This document shows, one piece after another, positions 1-23,777 of a stretch of 64,000 bases of DNA. This DNA comes from Lingula anatina. Taxonomy: Eukaryota; Animalia; Brachiopoda. The notes below the pieces were generated by a model. The model saw nothing but the letters and a program-made list of their open reading frames with translations. It did not search any database and was not told the DNA's origin. Position 1 is the first letter of the stretch. Each line of letters starts with the position of its first letter. The stretch covers positions 24,042,225 to 24,106,224 of the forward strand of contig CM120640.1 of the NCBI GenBank assembly GCA_051362555.1. Reading direction: 5' to 3'. The position numbers and the translations under genes are program-made.

Positions 1-3000
1 AGTCCATGTTCGTGTGGGGTCGCTCATCATCTTCTTTGTCCTGGAAAAAGAAATGAAAAACAAGATTAGATTCTTTCAATTTACCAATACCATCACCCCA
101 AAAAATGAAATTTACTAACCTTAGCTTGGATCCAAGAGTGAAGTCCATGTCCGTGTGGGGTCGCTCATCATCTTCTTCGTCCTGTAAAAAGAAATGAAAA
201 ACAAGTTTAGATTTTTTCAATTTACCCATCCTACAACCCCCCAAAAAAGAAATTTACTAACCTTAGCTTGGATCCAAGAGTGAAGTCCATGTCCGGGTGG
301 GGTTGCTCATCATCTTCTTTGTCCTGTAAAAAGAAATGAAAAACAAAATTAGATTCTTTCAATTTACCCATCCTACAACCCTAAAAGAATAAAATTTACT
401 AACCTTAGATTGGATCCAAGAGTGAAGTCCATGTCCGTGTGGGCTCGCTCATCAACTTCTTTATCCTGGAAAAAGAAATTTAAAACAAGATTAGATTCTT
501 TCAATTTACCCATCCTACAACCCCAAAAGAATAAAATTTACTAACCTTAGATTGGATCCAAGAATGAAGTCCATGTCTGGGTGGGGTCACTCATCCTTAT
601 TGTGGATCCAAGAGTGTAGTCCATGTCCGTGTGGGGTCGCTCATCATCTTCTTTATCCTGTAAAAAGAAATGTAAAACAAGATTAGATTCTTTCAATTTA
701 CCAATACCATCACCCCAAAAAAATTAAATTTACTAACCTTAGCTTGGATCCAAGAGCGAAGTCCATGTCCGGGTGGGGTCGCTCATCATCTTCTTTGTCC
801 TGGAAAAAGAAATGAAAAACAAGATTAGATTCTTTTAATTTACCCATCCTACAACCCCAAAAAAATAAAATTTACTAACCTTAGATTGGATCCAAGAGTG
901 AAGTCCATGTCCGTGTGGGGTCACTCATCATCTTCTTTGTCCTGGAAAAAGAAATTAAAAACACGATTAGATTCTTTCAATTTACCAATACCATCACCCC
1001 AAAAAAATTAAATTTACTAACCTTAGCTTGGATCCAAGAGTGAAGTCCATGTCTGGGTGGGGTCGCTCATCATCTTCTTTGTCCTGTAAAAAGAAATGAA
1101 AAACAAGATTAGATTTTTTCCATTTACCCATCCTATAACCCCAAAAAAAATGAAATTAACTAACCTTAGATTGGATCCAAGAGTGAAGTCCATGTCTGGG
1201 TGGGGTCGCTCATCATCTTCTTTGCCCTGGAAAAAGAAATGTAAAACAAGATTAGATTCTTTCAATTTACCCATCCTACAACCTCAAAAAAATGAAATTT
1301 ACCAACCTTAGATTGGATCCAAGAGTAAAGACCATGTCTGGGTAGGGTCGCTCATCCTTAGTGTGGAACCAAGAGTGTAGTCCATGTCCGTGTGGGGTCG
1401 CTCATCATCTTCTTTGACCTGGAAAAAGAAATGTAAAACAAAATTAGATTTCTTCAATTTACCCATCCCAACACCCCCCAAAAAAAGGAAATTTCCTTAC
1501 CTTACATTGGATCCAAGAGTGTAGTCCATGTTTATGTGGGGTCCCTCATCATCTTCTTTGTCCTGTAAAAATAAATGAAAAACAAGATTAGATTCTTTCA
1601 ATTTACCCATCCTACAACCTCAAAAAAATGAAATTTACCAACCTTAGATTGGATCCAAGAGTGAAGTCCATGTCTGGGCAGGGTTGCTCATCATCTTCTT
1701 TGTCCCGTAAAAGGAAATGAAAAACAAGATTAGATTTTTTCAATTTACCCATCCTACAACCCCAAAAAAATGAAATTTACTAACCTTAGCTTGGATCCAA
1801 GAGTGAAGACCATGTCCGGGTGGGGTCCCTCATCATCTCCTTTGTCCTGTAAAAAGAAATGAAAAACAAGATTAGATTTGTTCAATTTACCAATACCATC
1901 ACCTCAAAACAATGAAATTTACTAACCTTAGCTTGGATCCAAGAGCGAAGTCCATGTCCGGGTGGGGTCGCTCATCATCTTCTTTGTCCTGGAAAAAGAA
2001 ATGAAAAACAAGATTAGATTCTTTCAATTTACCCATCCTACAACCTCAAAAAAATGAAATTTACAAACCTTAGATTGGATCCAAGAGTAAAGACCATGTC
2101 TGGGTGGGGTCACTCATCCTTATTGTGGATCCAAGAGTGTAGTCCATGTCCGTGTGAGGTCGCTCATCATCTTCTTTATCCTGTAAAAAGAAATTAAAAA
2201 CAAGATTAGATTCTTTCAATTTACCCATCCTACAACCCCAAAAAAATAAAATTTACTAACCTTAGATTGGATCCAAGAGTGAAGTCCATGTCCGTGTGGG
2301 GTCGCTCATCATCTTCTTTGTCCTGGAAAAAGAAATTAAAAACACGATTAGATTCTTTCAATTTACCAATACCATCACCCCAAAAAAATGAAATTTACTA
2401 ACCTTAGCTTGGATCCAAGAGTGAAGTCCATGTCCGTGTGGGGTCGCTCATCATCTTCTTTGTCCTGTAAAAAGAAATGAAAAACAAGATTAGATTCTTT
2501 CAATTTACCCATCCTACAACCTCAAAAAAATGAAATTTACTAACCTTAGCTTGGATCCAAGAGTGAAGTCCATGTGTGGGTGGGGTCGCTCATCATCTTC
2601 TTTGTCCTGTAAAAAGAAATGAAAAACAAGTTTAGATTTTTTCCATTTACCCATCCTATAACCCCAAAAAAATGAAATTAACTAACCTTAGATTGGATCC
2701 AAGAGTGAAGTCCATGTCCGGGTGGGGTCGCTCATCATCTTCTTTTTCCTGTAAAAAGAAATGTAAAACAAGATTAGATTCTTTCAATTTACCCATCCTA
2801 CAACCCCCAAAAAATAACATTTACTAACCTTAGCTTGGATCCAAGAGTGAAGTCCATGTCTGTGTGGGGTCGCTCATCATCTTCTTTGTCCTGGAAAAAG
2901 AAATGAAAAACAAGATTACATTCTTTCGATTTACCAATACCATCACCCCAAAAAAATGAAATTTACTAACCTTAGCTTGGATCCAAGAGTGAAGTCCATG

Positions 3001-6000
3001 TCCGTGTGGGGTCGCTCATCATCTTCTTCGTCCTGTAAAAAGAAATGAAAAACAAGATTAGATTTTTTCAATTTACCCATCCTACAACCCCGAAAAAAAG
3101 AAATTTACTAACCTTAGCTTGGATCCAAGAGTGAAGTCCATGTCCAGGTGGGGTTGCTCATCATCTTCTTTGTCCTGTAAAAAGAAATGAAAAACAAAAT
3201 TAGATTCTTTCAATTTACCCATCCTACAACCCCAAAAGAATAAAATTTACTAACCTTAGATTGGATCCAAGAATGAAGTCCATGTCCGTGTGGGGTTGCT
3301 CATCATCTTCTTTGTCCTGGAAAAAGAAATGTAAAACAAGATTAGATTCTTTCAATTTACCCATCCTACAACCTCAAAAAAATGAAATTTACTAACCTTA
3401 GCTTGGATCCAAGAGTGAAGTCCATGTGTGGGTGGGGTCGCTCATCATCTTCTTTGTCCTGTAAAAAGAAATGAAAAACAAGTTTAGATTTTTTCCATTT
3501 ACCCATCCTATAACCCCAAAAAAATGAAATTAACTAACCTTAGATTGGATCCAAGAGTGAAGTCCATGTCTGGGTGGGGTCGCTCATCATCTTCTTTTTC
3601 CTGTAAAAAGAAATGTAAAACAAGATTAGATTCTTTCAATTTACCCATCCTACAACCCCAAAAAAATAAAATTTACTAACCTTAGCTTGGATCCAAGAGT
3701 GAAGTCCATGTCTGTGTGGGGTCGCTCATCATCTTCTTTGTCCTGGAAAAAGAAATGAAAAACAAGATTACATTCTTTCGATTTACCAATACCATCACCC
3801 CAAAAAAATGAAATTTACTAACCTTAGCTTGGATCCAAGAGTGAAGTCCATGTCCGTGTGGGGTCGCTCATCATCTTCTTCGTCCTGTAAAAAGAAATGA
3901 AAAACAAGATTAGATTTTTTCAATTTACCCATCCTACAACCCCGAAAAAAAGAAATTTACTAACCTTAGCTTGGATCCAAGAGTGAAGTCCATGTCCAGG
4001 TGGGGTTGCTCATCATCTTCTTTGTCCTGTAAAAAGAAATGAAAAACAAAATTAGATTCTTTCAATTTACCCATCCTACAACCCCAAAAGAATAAAATTT
4101 ACTAACCTTAGATTGGATCCAAGAGCGAAATCCATGTCCGGGTGGGGTCGCTCATCATCTTCTTTGTCCTGGAAAAAGAAATGAAAAACAAGATTAGATT
4201 CTTTCAATTTACCCATCCTACAACCTCAAAAAAATGAAATTTACAAACCTTAGATTGGATCCAAGAGTAAAAACCATGTCTGGGTGGGGTCACTCATCCT
4301 TAGTGTGGATCCAAGAGTGTAGTCCATGTCCGTGTGGGGTTGCTCATCATCTTCTTTATCCTGTAAAAAGAAATGTAAAACAAGATTAGATTCCTTCAAT
4401 TTACCCATCCTACAACCCCAAAAAAATAAAATTTACTAACCTTAGATTGGATCCAAGAGTGAAGTCCATGTTCGTGTGGGGTCGCTCATCATCTTCTTTG
4501 TCCTGGAAAAAGAAATGAAAAACAAGATTAGATTCTTTCAATTTACCAATACCATCACCCCAAAAAATGAAATTTACTAACCTTAGCTTGGATCCAAGAG
4601 TGAAGTCCATGTCCGTGTGGGGTCGCTCATCATCTTCTTCATCCTGTAAAAAGAAATGAAAAACAAAATTAGATTCTTTCAATTTACCCATCCTACAACC
4701 CCAAAAGAATTAAATTTACTAACCTTAGATTGGATCCAAGAGTGAAGTCCATGTCCGTGTGGGCTCGCTCATCAACTTCTTTATCCTGGAAAAAGTAATG
4801 TAAAACAAGATTAGATTCTTTCAATTTACCCATCCTACAACCCCAAAAGAATAAAATTTACAAACCTTAGATTGGATCCAAGAGTAAAGACCATGTCTGG
4901 GTGGGGTCACTCATCCTTATTGTGGATCCAAGAGTGTAGCCCATGTCCGTGTGGGGTCGCTCATCATCTTCTTTATCCTGTAAAAAGAAATGTAAAACAA
5001 GATTAGATTCTTTCAATTTACCAATACCATCACCCCAAAAAAATGAAATTTACTAACCTTAGCTTGGATCCAAGAGCGAAGTCCATGTCCGGGTGGGGTC
5101 GCTCATCATCTTCTTTGTCCTGGAAAAAGAAATGAAAAACAAGATTAGATTCTTTCAATTTACCCATCCTACAACCTCAAAAAAATGAAATTTACAAACC
5201 TTAGATTGGATCCAAGAGTAAAGACCATGTCTGGGTGGGGTCACTCATCCTTATTGTGGATCCAAGAGTGAAGTCCATGTCTGGGTGGGGTCGCTCATCA
5301 TCTTCTTTGTCCTGTAAAAAGAAATGAAAAACAAGATTAGATTTTTTCCATTTACCCATCCTATAACCCCAAAAAATGAAATTAACTAACCTTAGATTGG
5401 ATCCAAGAGTGAAGTCCATGTCTGGGTGGGGTCGCTCATCATCTTCTTTGCCCTGGAAAAAGAAATGTAAAACAAGATTAGATTCTTTCAATTTACCCAT
5501 CCTACAACCTCAAAAAAATGAAATTTACCAACCTTAGATTGGATCCAAGAGTAAAGACCATGTCTGGGTAGGGTCGCTCATCCTTAGTGTAGAACCAAGA
5601 GTGTAGTCCATGTCCGTGTGGGGTCGCTCATCATCTTCTTTGACCTGGAAAAAGAAATGTAAAACAAAATTAGATTTCTTCAATTTACCCATCCCAACAC
5701 CCCCCAAAAAAAGGAAATTTCCTTACCTTACATTGGATCCAAGAGTGAAGTCCATGTCTGGGCAGGGTTGCTCATCATCTTCTTTGTCCTGTAAAAGGAA
5801 ATGAAAAACAAGATTAGATTTTTTCAATTTACCCATCCTACAACCCCAAAAAAATTAAATTTACTAACCTTAGCTTGGATCCAAGAGTGAAGACCATGTC
5901 CGGGTGGGGTCGCTCATCATCTCCTTTGTCCTGTAAAAAGAAATGAAAAACAAGATTAGATTTGTTCAATTTACCAATACCATCACCTCAAAACAATGAA

Positions 6001-9000
6001 ATTTACTAACCTTAGCTTGGATCCAAGAGCGAAGTCCATGTCCGGGTGGGGTCGCTCATCATCTTCTTTGTCCTGGAAAAAGAAATGAAAAACAAGATTA
6101 GATTCTTTCAATTTACCCATCCTACAACCTCAAAAAAATGAAATTTACAAACCTTAGATTGGATCCAAGAGTAAAGACCATGTCTGGGTGGGGTCACTCA
6201 TCCTTATTGTGGATCCAAGAGTGTAGTCCATGTCCGTGTGAGGTCGCTCATCATCTTCTTTATCCTGTAAAAAGAAATGTAAAACAAGATTAGATTCTTT
6301 CAATTTACCAATACCATCATCCCAAAAAAATGAAATTTACTAACCTTAGCTTGGATCCAAGAGCGAAGTCCATGTCCGGGTGGGGTCCCTCATCATCTTC
6401 TTTGTTCTGGAAAAAGAAATGAAAAACAAGATTAGATTCTTTCAATTTACCCATCCTACAACCCCAAAAAAATAAAATTTACTAACCTTAGATTGGATCC
6501 AAGAGTGAAGTCCATGTCCGTGTGGGGTCGCTCATCATCTTCTTTGTCCTGGAAAAAGAAATTAAAAACACGATTAGATTCTTTCAATTTACCAATACCA
6601 TCACCCCAAAAAAATGAAATTTACTAACCTTAGCTTGGATCCAAGAGCGAAGTCCATGTCCGGGTGGGGTAGCTCATCATCTTCTTTGTCCTGGAAAAAG
6701 AAATGAAAAACAAGATTAGATTCTTTCAATTTACCCATCCTACAACCTCAAAAAAATGAAATTTACAAACCTTAGATTGGATCCAAGAGTAAAGACCATG
6801 TCTGGGTAGGGTCACTCATCCTTATTGTGGATCCAAGAGTGTAGTCCATGTCCGTGTGGGGTCGCTCATCATCTTCTTTGTCCTGGAAAAAGAAATGTAA
6901 AACAAAATTAGATTCTTTCAATATACCAATACCATCACCCAAAAAAAATGAAATTTACTAACCTTAGCTTGGATCCAAGAGTGAGGTCCATGTCCGGGTG
7001 GGGTCGCTCATCATCTTCTTTATCCTGTAAAAAGAAATGTAAAACAAGATTAGATTCTTTCAATTTACCTATCCTACAACCCCAAAAGAATAAAATTTAC
7101 TAACCTTATATTGGATCCAAGAGTGAAGTCCATGTCCGTGTGGGCTCGCTCATCAACTTCTTTATCCTGGAAAAAGAAATGTAAAACAAGATTAGATTCT
7201 TTCAATTTACCCATCCTACAACCCCAAAAGAATAAAATTTACTAACCTTAGATTGGATCCAAGAATGAAGTTTACTAACCTTAGCTTGGATCCAAGAGCG
7301 AAGTCCATGTCCGGGTGGGGTAGCTCATCATCTTCTTTGTCCTGGAAAAAGAAATGAAAAACAAGATTAGATTCTTTCAATTTACCCATCCTACAACCTC
7401 AAAAAAATGAAATTTACAAACCTTAGATTGGATCCAAGAGTAAAGACCATGTCTGGGTGGGGTCACTCATCCTTATTGTGGATCCAAGAGTGTAGTCCAT
7501 GTCCGTGTGGGGTCGCTTATCATCTTCTTTATCCTGTAAAAAGAAATGTAAAACAAGAATAGATTCTTTCAATTTACCAATACCATCACCCCAAAAAAAT
7601 GAAATTTACTAACCTTAGATTGGATCCAAGAATGAAGTCCATGTCCGTGTGGGCTCGCTCATCAACTTCTTTATCCTGGAAAAAGAAATGATAAACAAGA
7701 TTAGATTTTTTCAATTTACCCATCCTACAACCCCAAAAAAATTGAATTTACTAACCTTAGCTTGGATCCAAGAGTGAAGACCATGTCCGGGTGGGGTCGC
7801 TCATCAACTTCTTTATCCTGGAAAAAGAAATGTAAAACAAGATTAGATTCTTTCAATTTACCCATCCTACAACCCCAAAAGAATAAAATTTACTAACCTT
7901 AGATTGGATCCAAGAATGAAGTCCATGTCCCTGTGGGCTCGCTCATCAACTTCTTTATCCTGGAAAAAGAAATGTAAAACAAGATTAGATTCTTTCAATT
8001 TACCCATCCTACAACCCCAAAAGAATAAAATTTACTAACCTTAGATTGGATCCAAGAATGAAGTTTACTAACCTTAGCTTGGATCCAAGAGCGAAGTCCA
8101 TGTCCGGGTGGGGTAGCTCATCATCTTCTTTGTCCTGGAAAAAGAAATGAAAAACGAGATTAGATTCTTTCAATTTACCCATCCTACAACCTCAAAAAAA
8201 TGAAATTTACAAACCTTAGATTGGATCCAAGAGTAAAGACCATGTCTGGGTGGGGTCACTCATCCTTATTGTGGATCCAAGAGTGTAGTCCATGTCCGTG
8301 TGGGGTCGCTCATCATCTTCTTTATCCTGTAAAAAGAAATGTAAAACAAGAATAGATTCTTTCAATTTACCAATACCATCACCCCAAAAAAATGAAATTT
8401 ACTAACCTTAGCTTGGATCCAAGAGTGAAGTCCATGTCTGGGTGGGGTCGCTCATCATCTTCTTTGTCCTGTAAAAAGAAATGAAAAACAAGATTAGATT
8501 TTTTCCATTTACCCATCCTATAACCCCAAAAAAATGAAATTAACTAACCTTAGATTGGATCCAAGAGTGAAGTCCATGTCTGGGTGGGGTCGCTCATCAT
8601 CTTCTTTGTCCTGGAAAAAGAAATGTAAAACAAGATTAGATTCTTTCAATTTACCCATCCTACAACCTCAAAAAAATGAAATTTACCAACCTTAGATTGG
8701 ATCCAAGAGTAAAGACCATGTCTGGGAAGGGTCGCTCATCCTTAGTGTGGATCCAAGAGTGTAGTCCATGTCCGTGTGGGGTCGCTCATCATCTTCTTTG
8801 TCCTGGAAAAAGAAATGTAAAACAAAATTACATTCTTTCAATTTACCAATACCATCACCCAAAAAAAATGAAACTTACTAACCTTAGCTTGGATCCAAGA
8901 GTGAGGTCCATGTCCGGGTGGGGTCGCTCATCATCTTCTTTATCCTGTAAAAAGAAATGTAAAACAAGATTAGATTCTTTCAATTTACCCATCCTACAAC

Positions 9001-12000
9001 CCCCAAAAAATAAAATTTACTAACCTTAGATTGGATCCAAGAGTGAAGTCCATGTCCGTGTGGGGTCGCTCATCATCTTCTTTGTCCTGGAAAAAGAAAT
9101 TAAAAACACGATTAGATTCTTTCAATTTACCAATACCATCACCCCAAAAAAATGAAATTTACTAACCTTAGCTTGGATCCAAGAGTGAAGTCCATGTCTG
9201 GGTGGGGTCGCTCATTATCTTCTTTGTCCTGTAAAAAGAAATGAAAAACAAGATTAGATTTTTTCCATTTACCCATCTTATAACCCCAAAAAAATGAAAT
9301 TAACTAACCTTAGATTGGATCCAAGAGTGAAGTCCATGTCTGGGTGGGGTCGCTCATCATCTTCTTTGTCCTGGAAAAAGAAATGTAAAACAAGATTAGA
9401 TTCTTTCAATTTACCCATCCTACAACCTCAAAAAAATGAATTTTACCAACCTTAGATTGGATCTAAGAGTAAAGACCATGTCTGGGTGGGGTCGCTCATC
9501 CTTTGTGTGGATCCAAGAGTGTAGTCCATGTCCGTGTGGGGTCGCTCATCATCTTCTTTGACCTGGAAAAAGAAATGTAAAACATAATTAGATTCTTTCA
9601 ATTTACCCATCCTACAACCTCAAAAAAATGAATTTTACCAACCTTAGATTGGATCTAAGAGTAAAGACCATGTCTGGGTAGGGTCGCTCATCATCTTCTT
9701 TGTCCTGTAAAAAGAAATGTAAAACAAAATTAGATTCTTTCAATTTACCAATACCATCACCCAAAAAAAATGAAATTTACTAACCTTAGCTTGGATCCAA
9801 GAGTGAGGTCCATGTCCGTGTGGGGTCGCTCATCATCTTCTTTGTCCTGTAAAAAGAAATGAAATACAACATTAGATTTTGTCAATTTACCCATCCTACA
9901 ACCCTAAAAAAATTAAATTTACTAACCTTAGCTTGCATCCAAGAGTAAAGTCTATGGCCAGGTGGGGTCGCTCATCATCTTCTTTATTCTGTAAAAAGAA
10001 ATGAAAAACAAGATTAGATTTCTTCAATTTACCCATCACACCCCCCCCCCCCCCCCCAAAAAAAAGGAAATTTCCTTACCTTACATTGGATCCAAGACTG
10101 TAGTCCACGTTTATGTGGGGTCCCTCATCATCTTCTTTGTCCTGTAAAAAGAAATGAAATACAACATTAGATTTTTTCAATTTAACCATCCCACCAACCC
10201 AAAAAAATGAAATTTACTAACCTTAGCTTGCATCCAAGAGTAAAGTCCATGGCCGGGTGGGGTGGCTCATCATCTTCTTTGTCCTGTAAAAAGAAATGAA
10301 AAACAAGATTAGATTTTTTCAATTTACCCATCCTATAACCCCAAAAGAATAAAATTTACTAACCTTAGATTGGATCCAAGAGTGAAGTCCATGTCCGGGT
10401 GGGGTCGCTCATCATCTTCTTTATCCTGTAAAAAGAAATGAAAAACAAGATTAGATTTTTTCAATTTACTCAACCTACAACCCCAAAAGAATAAAATTTA
10501 CTAACCTTAGCTTGGATCCAAGAGTGAAGTCCATGTCCGGGTGGGGTCGCTCATCATCTTCTTTGTCCTGTAAAAAGAAATGTAAAAAAAAGATTAGATT
10601 CTTTCAATTTACCAATACCATCACCCCAAAAAAATATAATTTACTAACCTTAGCTTGGATTGAAGAGTGAAGTCTATGTCCAGGTTGGGTTGCTCATCAT
10701 CTTCTTGGTCCTGGAAAAAGAAATTAAAAACAAGATTAGATTTTTTCAATTTACCCATAATACAACCTCAAAAAAATGAAATTTACTAACCTTAGTGTGG
10801 ATCCAAGACTGAAGTCCATGTCTGGGTGGGGTCACTCATCATCTTCTTTGTCCTGTCAAAAGAAATGAAAAACAAGATTAGATTTTTTCAATTTACCCAT
10901 CCTACAACCCCAAAAAAATGAAATTTACTAACCTTAGCTTGGATCCAAGAGTGAAGACCATGTCCGGGTGGGGTCGCTCATCATCTCCTTTGTCCTGTAA
11001 AAAGAAATGAAAAACAAGATTAGATTTGTTCAATTTACCCATTCCACCACCCCAAAAAAATTAAATTTACTAACCTTAGCTAGGATCTAAGAGTGAAGAC
11101 CATGTCCGAGTGGGGTTGCTCATCATCTTCTTTATCCTGTAAAAAGAAATGAAAAACAAGATTAGATATCTTTAATTTACCCATCCCACCACCCCCCAAA
11201 AAAAGAAATTTACTAACCTTAGCTTGCATCCAAGAGTAAAGTCCATGGCCGGGTGGGTTCGCTCATCATCTTCTTTGTCCTGTAAAAAGAAATGAAAAAC
11301 AAGATTAGATTCTTTCAATTTACCCATCCTACAACCTCAAAAAAATGAAATTTACCAACCTTAGATTGGATCCAAGAGTGAAGTCCATGTCTGGGCAGGG
11401 TTGCTCATCATCTTCTTTGTCCTGTAAAAGGAAATGAAAAACAAGATTAGATTTTTTCAATTTACCCATCCTACAACCCCCCAAAAAATGAAATTTACTA
11501 ACCTTATCTTTGATCCAAGACTGAAGTCCATGTCTGGGCAGGGTTGCTCATCATCTTCTTTGTCCTGTAAAAAGAAATGAAAAACAAGATTAGATTTTGT
11601 CAATTTACCCATCCTACAACCCCAAAAAAATGAAATTTACTAACCTTAGCTTGCATCCAAGAGTAAAGTCCATGGCCGGGTGTGGTCACTCATCATCTTC
11701 TTTATCCTGTAAAAAGAAATGCAAAACAAGATTAGATTCTTTCAATTTACCCATCCTACAACCCCAAAAGAATAAAATTTACTAACCTTAGCTTGCATCC
11801 AAGAGTAAAGTCCATGGCCGGGTGGGGTCGCTCATCATCTTCTTTATTCTGTAAAAAGAAATGAAAAACTGAATTAGATTTTTTCAATTTACTAATACCA
11901 TCACCCCAAAAAAATGAAATTTACTAACCTTAGCTTGGATCCAAGAGTGAAGTCCATGTCTGGGTGGGGTCGCTCATCATCTTCTTTATTCTGTAAAAAG

Positions 12001-14022
12001 AAATGAAAAACAAGATTAGATTCTTTCAATTTACCCATCCTACAACCCCAAAAGAATAAAATTTACTAACCTTAGATTGGATCCAAGAGTGAAGTCCATG
12101 TCCGGGTGGGGTCACTCATCATCTTTTTCATCCTGTAAAAAGAAATAAAAAACAAGATTAGATTTTTTCAATTTACCCATCCTACAACCCCCCAAAAAAG
12201 AAATTTACTAACCTTAGCTTGGATCCAAGAGTGAAGTCCATGTCCAGGTGGGGTCGCTCATCATCTTCTTTGTCCTGTAAAAAGAAATGAAAAACAAGAT
12301 TAGATTTTGTCAATTTACCCATCCTACAACCCCAAAAAAATGAAATTTACTAACCTTAGCTTGCATCCAAGAGTAAAGTCCATGGCCGGGTGTGGTCGCT
12401 CATCATCTTCTTTATCCTGTAAAAAGAAATGCAAAACAAGATTAGATTCTTTCAATTTACCCATCCTACAACCTCAAAAGAATAAAATTTACTAACCTTA
12501 GATTAGATCCAAGAGTGAAGTCCATGTCTGGGTGGGGTCACTCATCATCTTCTTTGGCCTGTAAAAAGAAATGAAAAACAAGATTAGATTTTGTCAATTT
12601 ACCCATCCTACAACCCCCCAAAAAAGAAATTAACTAACCTTAGCTTGCATCCAAGAGTAAAGTCCATGGCCGGGTGAGGTCGCTCATCATCTACTTTGTC
12701 CTGTAAAAAGAAATGAAAAACAAGATTAGATTTTGTCAATTTACCCATCCTACAACCCCAAAAGAATAAAATTTACTAACCTTAGCTTGCATCCAAGAGT
12801 AAAGTCCATGGCTGGGTGGGGTCGCTCATCATCTTCTTTATCCTGTAAAAAGAAATAAAAAACAAGATTAGATTTGTTCAATTTACCCATCCCACCACCC
12901 CCCAAAAAAAGAAATTTACTAACCTTAGCTTGGATCCAAGAGTGAAGTCCATGTCCGTGTGGGGTCGCTCATCATCTTCTTTGTCCTGGAAAAAGAAATG
13001 TAAAACAATATTAGATTTGTTCAATTTACCCATCCTACAACCCCAAAAAAAATGAAATTTACTAACCTTAGCTTGGATCCAAGAGTAAAGTCCATGGCCG
13101 GGTGGGGTCGCTCATCATCTTCTTTATCCTGTAAAAAGAAATGAAAAACAAGATTAGATTTCTTCAATTTACCCATCCCCCCCCACCCCCCCCACCCCCC
13201 CCCAAAAAAAAAAAAAAGAAATTTACTAACCTTAGCTTGGATCCAAGAGTGAAGTCCATGTCTGGGTGGGGTCCCTCATTATCTTCTTTGTCCTGTAAAA
13301 AGAAATGTAAAACAAGATTAGATTTTTTTCAATTTACCTACACCATCACCCCCAAAAAATAAAATTTACTAACCTTAGCTTGGATCCAAGAGTGAAGTCC
13401 ATATCCATGTGGGGTCGCTCATCATCTTCTTTGTCCTGGAAAAAAAAATGAAAAACAAGATTAGATTCTTTCAATTTACCCATCCTACAACCTCAAAAAA
13501 TGAACTTTACTAACCTTAGTGTGGATCCAAGAGTGAAGTCCATGTTCGGGTGGGGTCGCTCATCATCTTCTTTGTCCTGTAAAAAGAAATTAAAAACAAG
13601 ATTAGATTTTTTCAATTTACCCATCCTACAACCCCAAAAGAATAAAATTTACTAACCTTAGATTGGATCCAAGAGTGAAGTCCATGTCTGGGTGGGGTCA
13701 CTCATCATCTTCTTTGTCCTGCAAAAAGAAATGAAAAACAAGATTAGATTTTTTCAATTTACCCATCCTACAACCCCCAAAAAATGAAATTTACTAACCT
13801 TAGCTTGGATCCAAGAGTGAAGACCATGTCCGGGTGGGGTCGCTCATCATCTCCTTTGTCCTGTAAAAAGAAATGAAAAACAAGATTAGATTTGTTTAAT
13901 TTACCTATTCCACCACCCCAAAAAAATGAAATTTACTAACCTTAGCTTGGATCTAAGAGTGAAGACTGTGTCCGGGTGGGGTTGCTCATCATCTTCTTTG
14001 TCCTGTAAAAAGAAATGAAAAA
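1..14022 (-). repeat. 142-bp tandem repeat array (about 100 units, truncated by window start); each unit is an exon-plus-intron-like cassette on the minus strand
   Basis: GGATCC recurs at 128, 270, 412 and 554 (period 142). Shorter 50-bp units (e.g. 554-604) and 33-bp units (7255-7288) are interspersed. Minus-strand unit: TTTTTACAG|GACAAAGAAGATGATGAGCGACCCCACCCGGACATGGACTTCACTCTTGGATCCAAGCTAAG|GTTAGT. Homology stops at about 14022. Copy number is estimated from length divided by period. Confidence 0.97.
13941..14002 (-). other. Outermost (transcriptionally first) exon-like copy of the array, 62 nt, DKEDDEQPHPDTVFTLRSKL
   Basis: Preceded on the minus strand by unique sequence running into TTTTTTTCATTTCTTTTTACAG and followed by AAG|GTTAGT. 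Open in frame 0. Host protein not recognised. Confidence 0.45.
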
Positions 14023-15472
14023 AACTACTTTTCTTTGTTTGAGTTTTTAAAGTTGGTTTTTAAAGTGAAAGTGACATGGTTTTCCTTGAATGGTCACTGT
14101 GGAGGCAGTGCCCAAAATAGGGATGTCTTCAGTTTTGATGCAATATTACATAATGCTTGACAGCATAATGACCATCAAGTTTTAATAATAAAATAAAAGT
14201 ATAATGGATATTCAACAAATATGACATGAAAAAGTCTTCAAGGTCAAGGAAGTTCAGAGTCACACCTTCAAAATACCAAAATGTAAACGAGAGATAACTG
14301 TACTGAAATGATTTTCTTTCCATTTTCAAAACCTTTTTTACAGAAAACAAAATGAGCAATTTACTGTCATTTTTAAATGATCAACTAAGAAAATTGTTGA
14401 CAAAGGAAAAATATCAATAGAACAATTTTAAATGTCCTATTTGCTTCATTCTGAGATTCTGAACATAGTGAATGATTGAATCTGACAAACTGTAAAGATG
14501 TGTTTATTTCCATCTTTGAAACTTTATTACACAATACACAATAACAGGTTTACCATCATTTTTATATTATCAACTAACAATATTGTTAAGATGCAGAAAA
14601 TGTCAAAAGAACGCCTTTACATATATAATTAGTTAAAAAATGAGACTGTTAACATGCCTAAGAATCAAATCTGAGGAAAAAAATACTTATATACAAAAAC
14701 AAGGCATAACTTCAAGAAAACTTCACCAATCAAGCTTATTTTCGAACTAAATCTGTATTTCAGTAAGACTGATCACTCCTGTGAATTTCTAGACAATTGG
14801 TCAATTGATTTTCCTTGAAATGTGTTATCGGTGGTGCATATATGCTAAAGAAAGTTAAAAAACAGAATAGCTTTTATATAAATCGCCTGACCATGCCAAT
14901 TTTCTAACTTGACCTGTGTACTATGAATATTCATCAGTTCTGTAAGTTTCAATCCAAGTGTAAAAATGCTTTGTATGTGTCTGTACATAAAAACAATACA
15001 CAAAAGGGAAAAACACTTACACTTGAGAGAAAATGCACATCAGCCTTAGAAGAGAAACACGACAACCAAACAAGCGTGACCTAAATAGGGCATATGAAGG
15101 CTTTGGTTCTAGCCTCAAAGGGCATTCAACTTTCAAGAACGACCTAGAAACTTGGGCGTAAGAGGAATACGACAGAAATGAAAAGAGAGTATGACATGGT
15201 GGCACCTACCCATCTCCAGCAGCTTGGATTTCAGTCCATATACGATTATTTTTCTGCGGCGGTTATTCGAGGTCCGGGCTAAGAGCTGAGTGTTATTTGT
15301 ACATGTACATTTCCCAGATTGAAGGGTCGAATTCACAGAAGCACACCATGGGGAAAAGACACAACATTCGATGTTTTGTGCTAGTAAAGAAACTATCCTC
15401 AGGTGCGTTGCATTGGCGTAGGATCACATGAGATTTGAAGGTGGTTGCCCGAAGAAAATCAATCGCTCTCAC

Positions 15473-15509
15473 TTCTCGTCTCCTCTGGAGTGAAACGCAA
15501 CATGTCCAT
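15473..15509 (-). other. Candidate first coding exon (MDMLRFTPEETR) of an unidentified minus-strand gene pointing into the array
   Basis: ATGGACATGTTGCGT...ACGAGAA|GTGAGA lies in a locally CpG-rich patch (about 15240-15610). Further minus-strand donor-like sites occur near 15209 (GG|GTAGGT) and 15020 (GT|GTAAGT). I could not join these into a confident model. Confidence 0.25.
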
Positions 15510-16242
15510 CCCGCTTCACAATTGCCCGCTCTTAGACTTCCAATCTTAGATTGACGGCTGGGGGCGTTGTTGTCGTCAGCATCCTGTTAGTTTGAACGCG
15601 GGGGTGTCGTATGAGAATGAGACCCAAATTTCATTATTGCATTGTATATACACCTACGTTTGAAATGCATTCAGCGTTTTCATACCTTAACTTTTTTGTT
15701 TAAACAGATAAAAACGCACATGTACCTCGGAGGAAAGAATCAATGTACGGCTATAATAGTTTTTTGGGGGAAACCACGCACGCCTCTCCCCCAATTATTA
15801 TTGACAGTGTCCTTGCATCTTGTTGACATGATATCAACCTGAAGTTTATAAACCTACCCCAGGCCATCATTGGACGACCTTGTCCGCTTACTCTGGAACA
15901 TTTATTCACAATATGCACTGATCCACAATGCACTGTAAAGAAACTTTCATTTCATTTCTTGTTTCACAGATGATGATAATAAAGATAAAGTGATCAGATA
16001 ATACATTTTTGCTATAAATATGTATGTAGAGTTGTCCAGTTTTTTGGTAGCATTAATTTTCGAAGGAGAAAGGATAACGAAAGGATAATATACTTGGTGT
16101 GATTTAATGTTTTAGTTTCTTTTTACATATGCTTAAATATTTTAACTACTTCTTATATTTGCTTGAAAGAAGATGGCATGCAGGGCTCCATAGTCCCCCT
16201 TTTCACTGTTCAGAACTGGCATGGTTTAAAAAAAAAACTTTC

Positions 16243-16276
16243 GTGTGTGTGTGTGTGTGTGGGGGGGGGGGGGGGA
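16243..16276. repeat. (GT)n followed by poly-G
   Basis: gtgtgtgtgtgtgtgtgt followed by a G run, read directly. Confidence 0.9.
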
Positions 16277-17216
16277 GGGAGGGAGTTACCTCCCTCAGCT
16301 CCTGTGATCTTTTATGTTGTTTAATTACCCAAATTAACAGGTCTGTAGACGGAAAGGGGAGAGGGGGCGAACCCCAGAAGAAGGTTGTTTGCTCAGGGCA
16401 ACATATGACCTACGTACACGGAAGTTTCATGGTAAAAAGATCAACTTATAGAAAAAAAAACGTCACGTTTTGATAATCTGCATCTACTACAATTACCCAA
16501 ATGGTCTTTTATTTAAAAAAAAAAAAGATTAACAAAAAGCATACAACCATATAATGAAGAGGACATTATCAGACTGAGTCTCTAATAACTAAAATGAAAA
16601 AGTATACTTTTAGCTGAAGATGGAGTTAAACAATCTGCCTCAACGGGTTCAGGGGTTGAGAAGTAAATATGTAGAAAGCCAAAATGACGAAATAACCTTA
16701 ACATGAAATTACACAACTTATACGAAGCACATTTTTCTGACTGGCGTGGAGTTTTCATTTTTACAGCATGGAATTTAATGTAAGCGATATTTAGATTACC
16801 TGTTCAATGCCTGCTAGAGATATGCAGCAAGAAAACAAAGCGGGGACATCGTGGGATATGGTGGCCAGACCATGGACAGACGGTAGAGAGTTACAGGTGG
16901 TGCCCCCTCTGAAAATGGAGGTAAGGCCAATGATCTGAAAAATTAAGTATTGGACATGTACTGTTAATTACTTTTCGATTTCAATGGTGCGATGGGCGTA
17001 GAATAGGTGATTTTGCTACTTAAATATGAAGCCTATTTAATGATGTCAATCTATGGCAAATAGCGGGGGATTGTGAAAAATGGGTAATTGAAGGTCTGAT
17101 CATTCCCCTTTTTCTACCCCCTTACCGTCAATAGACAAAAAACTATGAAAACAAACATTTTAGACGAAAAATATTTATATTCTTATTAAAGATCAATTTC
17201 CTAAATTGATGGGTTT

Positions 17217-20497: not shown

Positions 20498-22076
20498 TCA
20501 CTCATTTTTGACTGCTGGTTTATTGTTCATCCAAACCCAAATATTGATGGAGGATGCCAAGCACAGCCATGCCAAGTAAGGCATCATTAGATAGGAGGCA
20601 TTCTTATTGATTCCCCAAAACATATAAATACATCCAGCTACACATCCTGCTGTTGTTACTATCTCCAGCGCACCCTGAAAGAGGAAAATTATATTGAAAA
20701 TTAATTAAACCTAATAGCAGCATTACAATTTTAATATATGAATGTTTTTCCACCAAGGGATCATGCAATGACAATATTAAAATACTGTTAAACCTAAAAT
20801 GAACAGCAGATAAAAACTGACACATTGTATGCCATTTCTGCTGCCTTAAATTCCCAATCCAAATACCATATATATGACACAAATAAAAAAGTTTTATTTG
20901 CAAGCCCATGGCCTACAGTCTTGCAGTTTAACATCTGTATTTCACCCCTCATTTCATTTTTTTTCAACTCTTTTGACCTTAACAGATTTAAGCAGCCATG
21001 ATGCAACAGTGGAAATATTTACCAGTCCCATCTTTCTAGCTCCAAAGAAAATGGGTGTCCATGCCCAATTGAGTGCCAGCTGTGTTCCATACAATGCCAA
21101 AGCACCAGCAGCATCTCCCTTAAAACCATTGCCATCACGATAGACAAGGTAGGAAGCATAACCCATACCTGAAATCCATTTGTTCTACCATGATTATCTT
21201 TTTATTCACATTTCTGATAAGTAGAAAAGCATTTCCTCTTAAAAGCATTTACGTTTATTTCTGTCACATAAGCATTCATTAACATCATTGAGTCAATGTT
21301 GAGAAATTATATACAAAGTTGCTCCGGTCTTTAAGTCCCACATAAATTATAGTTAGCTTTTTTGTTTCAGTCCATCAAGGATGTCCACCCCTACCTGTGT
21401 AAAGTGTGGTCCATACAGGTGCAAATACCCAGTTAGGTGGAGTCCATGCTGGCTTCTTTAAGTCCTTCAAAGAATACAATTATTATTGTTAAACTTCGAT
21501 TAAATGATTACATTCCATTTGGAAGTTTCTCCTCTGTATGTACATACAGTTGATGCAAGTGACTTTTCAGTTCTTTTAGTTTTACAATAATTGGAATATG
21601 ATATAGTAAATTACTTGATCAATTATTAGACTTAAAAATATATGGAAGTACTTTTGACCTCTTTACATATATTTACAAGCCATTTTGGCAAAAAAAAAAA
21701 AAAAAACTATAACGAACAGTTACAGTAAAGCAGCTAGTAATTAGTAAATAACAGAAGAGAGAAAGCAGAAAAATGCAACAATCATCAATATACAAGGGCT
21801 TGGCATTCCACTTTTTATCACATCTAACAATTATTTATATATGCTTATAATCACAAATTCTCAGGAATGAATTGAACAGTTTTACCAAAAAATAAATAAA
21901 TAAATAAATAAAATACAAACTGGAGCCCTTGTATAATGACAAATTGCTAGAGTCAAACCATGCACCTTGAACCAATTTTTCAATGTAGGGCGTGTGAAAA
22001 AGGTACCAGCAATTCCACCTATATGTGGGAACAAACTGAAAGCTACAGGGGGTAATAATGCAGACCAAGACGCCAT
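20498..22076 (-). CDS. TSPO: Translocator protein TSPO (TspO/MBR family), isoform using the proximal ATG exon, 167 aa
   Basis: Exons (minus) 22076-21966, 21464-21395, 21168-21023 and 20674-20498, all GT-AG with compatible phases. Translation contains [44 protein letters not shown] and LMMPYLAWL, which are hallmark TSPO motifs. Stop TGA at 20500-20498. Confidence 0.96.
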
Positions 22077-23110: not shown

Positions 23111-23651
23111 GTATCCTCTTCCTGGACTGGACTAAGACTGGTTAAAAGGGGAAATTAATGCAAATGTGCCTTTTAAGGTTGTTAAAACAAAAGGCTATGG
23201 CTAGGAAAGTGATAATCAGTTAATCATTTATCATTTCTGAAAGGGATGACTCATTGCTAGTTGGGATTATATGGACTGGACGATAACCGAAAGGCATGCA
23301 GTGTACATATTCAAAACAAAAATCTCTTAAAATAACAAAACACAAAGTACTAGTACTTATTAACGATAACACTGATGGATCCATGCTAGGTTATGTAGAG
23401 GGGGTGTCTTGGACAATTCGTTTTTCAGGAAAGGGGATAGGTGCAGATACCTCACCCCTCCCCTCCCACTTTTCTCTGGAACTGCACTTGAATAAAACAG
23501 TCTTTTTGGGCACATCATGTTGCAGTTTATCCAAGGGTAATACAAACATAATCACAAATAACGAGACCCTTATCATGAAATTTAAAGAATAAGACAAGGA
23601 CGAAAAATAAAAAACATTAACAGAGGCATGCAGATCAGATCCATGATTTAC

Positions 23652-23777
23652 CTCATTATACCATTTTTCTGACTCTTTGAAGAACTTAGCATGAACGGCA
23701 TATGCATTCACAAAACCACCAACAGTTGGCACAAATATGAATGCTGAAGGAACCAGAAATTTGGACCACTCAGGCAT
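23652..23777 (-). CDS. TSPO: TSPO alternative ATG-bearing exon (distal copy, TM1 plus loop 1), giving a 172-aa isoform
   Basis: TTTATTTCACAG|A ATG ... GAG|GTAAAT. 42 codons, MPEWSKFLVPSAFIFVPTVGGFVNAYAVHAKFFKESEKWYNE, homologous to the proximal exon and ending in the same phase 0. Confidence 0.85.

Follow-up and report, generated by a model that had tools for sequence, protein, structure and literature searches.

At the left end of a 64-kb stretch of the Lingula anatina genome (the window; all coordinates are positions within it) lies a tandem array with a period of 142 bp, whose units, parsed on the minus strand, typically consist of a 62-nt exon and an 80-nt intron. The unit works as an exon with its intron, and RNA reads join adjacent copies to one another. 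We think it fairly likely that the array arose when one exon of a non-coding transcript expressed at a low level was amplified together with its intron, to at least 94 copies, and that copy-to-copy splicing takes place in RNA of this repeat family.

The array spans positions 1 to 14022 and extends past the left edge of the window. A motif parse of the minus strand yields 95 donors and 94 acceptors and divides the array without gaps. A reading made from the sequence alone had described about 100 units of 62 + 80 nt; the array is as it described, but the count is nearer 94 (93 complete exon-type segments and one copy cut by the window edge), and only 80 of the 93 segments are 62 nt long, the other 13 being 112 nt. 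The introns are 80 nt long in 78 of 93 cases and 79 to 102 nt in the remainder, and there are two partial units of 33 nt each, one with an extra donor at 8040–8072 (minus strand) and a second copy at 7247–7279. In the first unit, the exon occupies 13941–14002 (minus strand), both ends being boundaries that are joined in RNA reads, and the intron at 13861–13940 (minus strand) has a GTTAGT donor, a CTAAT motif with its A at -26, a pyrimidine tract, and a CAG. The right border of the array falls, as had been suggested, at the first copy's pyrimidine tract and acceptor (14003–14022, minus strand). The sequence-only reading also held that the splice signals are kept across variants, and scoring every unit bears this out: all 93 introns begin with GT (GTTAGT in 75, GTTTGT in eight, GTTGGT in seven, and GTAAGG in three), 92 end in AG (TACAG in 54, TCCAG in 36, and other pentamers in three, one of them without AG), and 85 contain the CTAAT branch-like motif with its A at -26. 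The sole array intron in which the acceptor AG is lost is that at 1705–1784 (minus strand). Donor, branch, tract and YAG occur together on one strand in 19 of 5,000 dinucleotide shuffles of the monomer and in 3 of 701 other pieces of the window, by a rule formulated post hoc with the unit already known.

We aligned four same-species RNA runs of nine (X1, X4, X6, and X8) to positions 13870–16450, sampling 6% of X1, X4, and X6 and 26% of X8; because this target contains a single exon copy, it collects the reads of every copy. Seven X1 reads with three start places and two X6 reads with two start places contain a joint leading 62 nt back, and four further X1 reads show the same 62-nt period in a diverged copy. 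The joint aligns as 14001>13940 with an ambiguity of three letters, and is compatible with 14002>13941, the predicted GT/AG boundaries. All of the reads with 62-nt joints are first-mate plus. Under the usual stranded design this corresponds to minus-strand RNA, and it is on the minus strand that the skipped part reads GT..AG. Exons are covered more deeply than introns in both runs (29–31 versus 8 in X1, and 22–25 versus 10–12 in X6); X1 has 7 spliced joints (plus the 4 from the diverged copy) versus 2 unspliced, 142-nt joints, and its exon depth is ~3.7-fold the intron depth. A set of 2,744 simulated unspliced array reads, processed with a different aligner from that used for the RNA runs, never produced the 62-nt offset (the offsets were 140–144, 50, and 33) and gave exon:intron depth ratios of only 1.1 to 1.5, and the intron-less 62-nt junction is absent from the DNA of the window. 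As the 62-nt joints lie at the predicted boundaries and none arise from simulated unspliced reads, we conclude that the splice sites work; the monomer had been proposed to be a complete exon plus intron, and two of the four runs confirm it. The conclusion that only a single copy is used does not survive, as the RNA reads join copy to copy. We judge single-exon circles, or exon repetition by trans-splicing, to be less simple accounts of the same joints. With a donor located 4 nt beyond the predicted one, the exon would be 66 nt long and in frame; no 66-nt joint is present among the 15 of 25 joints listed.

Upstream of the array, the stretch at 15001–15609 (minus strand) is weakly transcribed and carries candidate donors at 15209 and 15020. 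The same-strand depth in X1 is 0.9 to 8 across this stretch, and near zero at 15610–16392, which rules out read-through from the TSPO gene as the source of the RNA. The observed-to-expected CpG ratio is 0.70 to 1.04 at 15101–15700 versus 0.11 to 0.45 immediately downstream. By its depth and composition, 15001–15609 looks like the promoter and first exon of a transcript that would run on into the array, and the array transcript probably begins at this CpG-rich site, ~1.5 kb upstream. Two open reading frames (ORFs) across the candidate first exon had no Pfam match at threshold. The candidate first exon is separated from the array by a decayed interspersed repeat of high copy number at 14044–14993 (no strand assigned), which is internally similar at ~187 bp and attracts thousands of reads, mostly <95% alike. 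An origin of the array monomer from this flanking repeat is not favored, the two having no similarity. The majority of the reads on the repeat share one orientation in each of three stranded runs, which is odd for an interspersed repeat. We take the repeat to resemble the satellites borne by mollusc Helentrons; the accessible portion of a paper on oyster Helentrons (PMC7492417) offers no usable link to either the repeat or the monomer.

In the reading that we favor, the 62-nt exon and 80-nt intron would have been amplified in place through unequal crossing-over. The introns would be removed one after another to leave a head-to-tail 62-nt repeat RNA with short reading frames only, which nonsense-mediated decay would be expected to target; such decay may be the reason for the low RNA level. 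That joining two copies leads to a stop had been predicted, and both shifted frames are indeed closed in 80 of 80 copies, with a longest stop-free stretch of 57 codons when all copies are joined. The expansion of the array is most likely near-neutral, and is tolerated because each copy supplies its own splice sites. The sequence-only reading had offered, as one of two options, an exon turned satellite whose decoy copies are skipped; its satellite origin is close to what we favor, but plain skipping is not, as copies are at least sometimes spliced in. An RNA-level function of the repeat transcript is possible. We give little credence to a stronger version, a 'spliced satellite' in which serial removal of ~100 minimal introns makes a non-coding RNA, the donors rather than the peptide are selected, and a functional repeat RNA has as many 62-nt modules as the length of the array dictates.

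Several observations weigh against copy-to-copy splicing of an array transcript from this locus. Read numbers are low, and the RNA comes from animals other than the one assembled; X4 and X8 have only one or two reads each on the unit and no joint, and in X6 the unspliced joints (6) exceed the spliced ones (2). With 150-nt reads, the evidence covers two neighboring copies at a time and does not extend to a chain of 90. A base at 13965 that is present in 20 of the 93 window copies appears in none of 31 X1 and none of 22 X6 reads, and the diverged spliced copy mismatches every window copy at a minimum of 6 out of 26 letters; the array-matching reads could stem from other alleles, copies outside the window, or a second locus. 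No joint from 15.0–15.6 kb to the array is found among the 15 of 25 joints listed, and the window shows neither where the array ends on the left nor any downstream exon. Selection on the splice signals is weak at best. In a tree-based, base-matched test of six column sets (78 units, uncorrected P values), the full splice-signal set has 17 changes versus 30.1 expected (P = 0.067), and the branch, the tract, and the acceptor taken alone show no conservation beyond background; the donors, with 3 changes versus 12.7 expected (P = 0.016), are the lone set with P < 0.05 uncorrected. The column tests drew on 78 to 80 of the 93 units, namely those with 62-nt exons and, for a frequency test, also with 80-nt introns. 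That frequency test, which covered 13 splice columns chosen by hand and gave p = 0.0003, was set aside in favor of the tree test, since it ignores shared descent.

Among the alternatives, the one that fares best, though we consider it unlikely, places the array within a protein-coding gene, in its first intron or its 5′ part, with a first exon ending at 15210 (ATG plus one base) and the next real exon beyond the window; the copies would be pseudo-exons, usually skipped and sometimes joined. An ATG in good context does lie immediately before the donor at 15209, unspliced array reads occur, the left end of the array is out of view, and the CpG decay is compatible with a methylated gene body, such bodies being established in many invertebrates. 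Usual skipping is nonetheless difficult to square with the excess of spliced over unspliced joints and the ~3.7-fold exon depth in X1. Moreover, there is no clear drop in depth at 15209, and the first-exon stretch is covered at 1–8x, below the 30x of the pooled exon copy. The ATG at the 15209 donor is also preceded by several upstream ATGs, and its phase runs into a stop in the array exon.

It is less likely again that the array is a silent satellite offshoot, with the spliced reads originating elsewhere in the genome, in a related array or gene that donated the exon. The reads do depart from the variant mix of the assembled haplotype and include a copy type missing from the window. However, such departures have to be set against RNA taken from other animals, a heterozygosity of 1.6% in this species (in the accessible part of PMC4595640), and fast array turnover; in addition, the X6 reads all carry the array's majority base at two listed exon sites, and same-strand transcription starts in single-copy DNA 1.5 kb upstream.

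The other option in the sequence-only reading, a Dscam-like bank in which each mRNA takes one of ~94 variant exons and thereby diversifies a 20-residue protein stretch, now appears very improbable. Of 80 copies, 73 are free of stops in frame 0 and encode 53 distinct peptides, and the inclusion of two copies destroys the frame, as such a bank would have it. But copies are chained in RNA, and the peptide is without purifying selection: 46 of 56 variant alleles in frame 0 alter it (pN/pS 1.46), third codon positions are the least changed, and exons and introns have diverged equally (mean identities of 91.0 and 90.6%), so that a comparison of exon and intron divergence, suggested as a way to detect coding constraint, reveals none. 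Seven of the 80 copies have frame 0 stops; the CGA>TGA stops noted earlier account for six of these and reflect a CpG mutation hot spot, with 8.0 tree-based changes at CpG columns versus 2.6 at other C/G columns. A search for a protein homologue of the exon peptide had also been proposed, and three protein searches, which with such short queries are modest evidence, found none: a search among longer proteins, using the natural window frames, gave five candidates but none with E ≤ 10, one among proteins of similar length gave no candidate, and phmmer with a 36-residue query had no hits at E ≤ 0.001 against 1.84 billion representatives. A search for the monomer pattern in metagenome contigs gave no matches, and is uninformative for an animal sequence. 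Upstream, no coding exon with a start and the required phase was found in the window. Finally, we can all but dismiss the notion that the transcript hosts small RNAs freed from each intron or unit (a mirtron, snoRNA, or piRNA array), in spite of an architecture that recalls repeat-exon host genes such as SNHG14, whose RNAs are typically non-coding and unstable, because two introns fold worse than their shuffles (z of +0.9 and +0.7), whole units fold no better than theirs (z of +0.1 and -0.3), and 9900–16400 has no Rfam match near the gathering score.

As to the growth of the array, blocks of 380 to 790 bp recur at offsets of 852, 793, 4084, and 4226 bp with 99.0 to 99.7% identity; in one example, at 2481–4124 (no strand assigned), a six-unit duplication offset by 852 bp is 99.6% identical over ~790 bp. 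The 112-nt exon variants, which contain a 50-nt internal repeat, are confined to the part of the array left of 9.6 kb, the first of the 13 being at 9451–9562 (minus strand). Together, the near-identical multi-unit blocks and the restricted position of the long variants suggest recent unequal crossing-over. The junction within the 112-nt variants fuses an exon end, at most one base from the donor, to a point 12 nt inside the next exon; the variant at 9451–9562 and the 12 similar ones thus have a deletion beginning at a splice site, not a clean intron loss. In local folding at 10470–10600 (minus strand), which also bears on Dscam1-type docking-site and selector pairing, the C-rich central part of the exon pairs with a G-run in the intron that follows, but this fold has no greater stability than shuffles (z of -0.3).

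The window also contains TSPO (minus strand, ~20.5–24 kb), a CH-domain gene that we take to be parvin, TEAD, and a CDK inhibitor, whose ORF shares 99% identity with a Lingula anatina protein. TEAD (plus strand) has two homologous exon pairs, 40390–40517/40561–40688 and 41060–41221/41265–41429, with a 43-nt intron within each pair. The exons of the first pair are 128 nt each and encode the second half of the TEA domain, and using both would shift the frame; from their arrangement, these look like true mutually exclusive pairs. In TSPO, two similar candidate first coding exons that start with ATG, at ~23650–23777 and ~21960–22076, precede a shared exon at ~21395–21465, and alternative N-termini are possible.

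Drosophila Dscam1 likewise has dozens of tandem variant exons of equal length, but only one is used per cluster, and the variants are old, diverged, and protein-conserved, whereas the Lingula copies are chained, ~91% identical, and freely drifting. In SNHG14 and C19MC, each intron holds a structured snoRNA or miRNA hairpin; the two Lingula introns that were folded give no sign of one (the fold scores given above being positive), and 9900–16400 has no near-threshold Rfam match. A closer parallel is provided by the SmPoMuc genes of Schistosoma mansoni, in which, from what is accessible of their description, an exon and its flanking intron are tandemly repeated and evolve in concert, with several copies per transcript (PMC2576457). 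There too the repeat unit is exon plus intron, and the Lingula units are similarly homogenized (91% mean identity, with 99% blocks) and appear as at least two adjacent copies per read. The SmPoMuc unit, however, is ~1 kb long with a 27-nt in-frame exon, is present in at most ~20 genomic copies, and encodes a protein repeat under selection, according to the same portion of that source (PMC2576457); that of Lingula is 142 bp long and present in at least 94 copies, and its 62-nt exon is out of frame and without peptide selection.

The long non-coding RNA Firre is also a spliced RNA with repeat copies as exons, its RRD repeat forming 7 of 13 human and 11 of 23 mouse exons in the available part of the account (PMC4820808), and the Lingula RNA, as far as short reads reach, looks spliced and non-coding. 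Firre repeats are described there as discontinuous and local, with a tested role in nuclear retention via hnRNPU (PMC4820808); the Lingula copies are strictly head-to-tail, far more numerous, and recent, and have no known role. The human intragenic exon arrays of DAZ (2.4-kb repeats), LPA, NBPF, and DMBT1 are coding, as far as the available section of their survey extends (PMC2588610). They share with the Lingula array tandem genomic units that each contain one or more exons, and differ from it in that each unit measures kilobases and contributes protein domains.

We found no published account of this array, or of an equally dense out-of-frame array, in a search that left most of the subscription literature outside its reach. 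If transcripts of the whole array exist, they are a natural test of splicing and nonsense-mediated decay on ~100 near-identical junctions; if they do not, the array is a curiosity of repeat turnover. It offers a clean example of a minisatellite in which the monomer is itself a complete and working exon–intron unit, with RNA-supported serial splicing despite the loss of frame, and thereby one route from a gene segment to satellite DNA that is still spliceable, and one route for the rapid origin of repeat-exon long non-coding RNAs.

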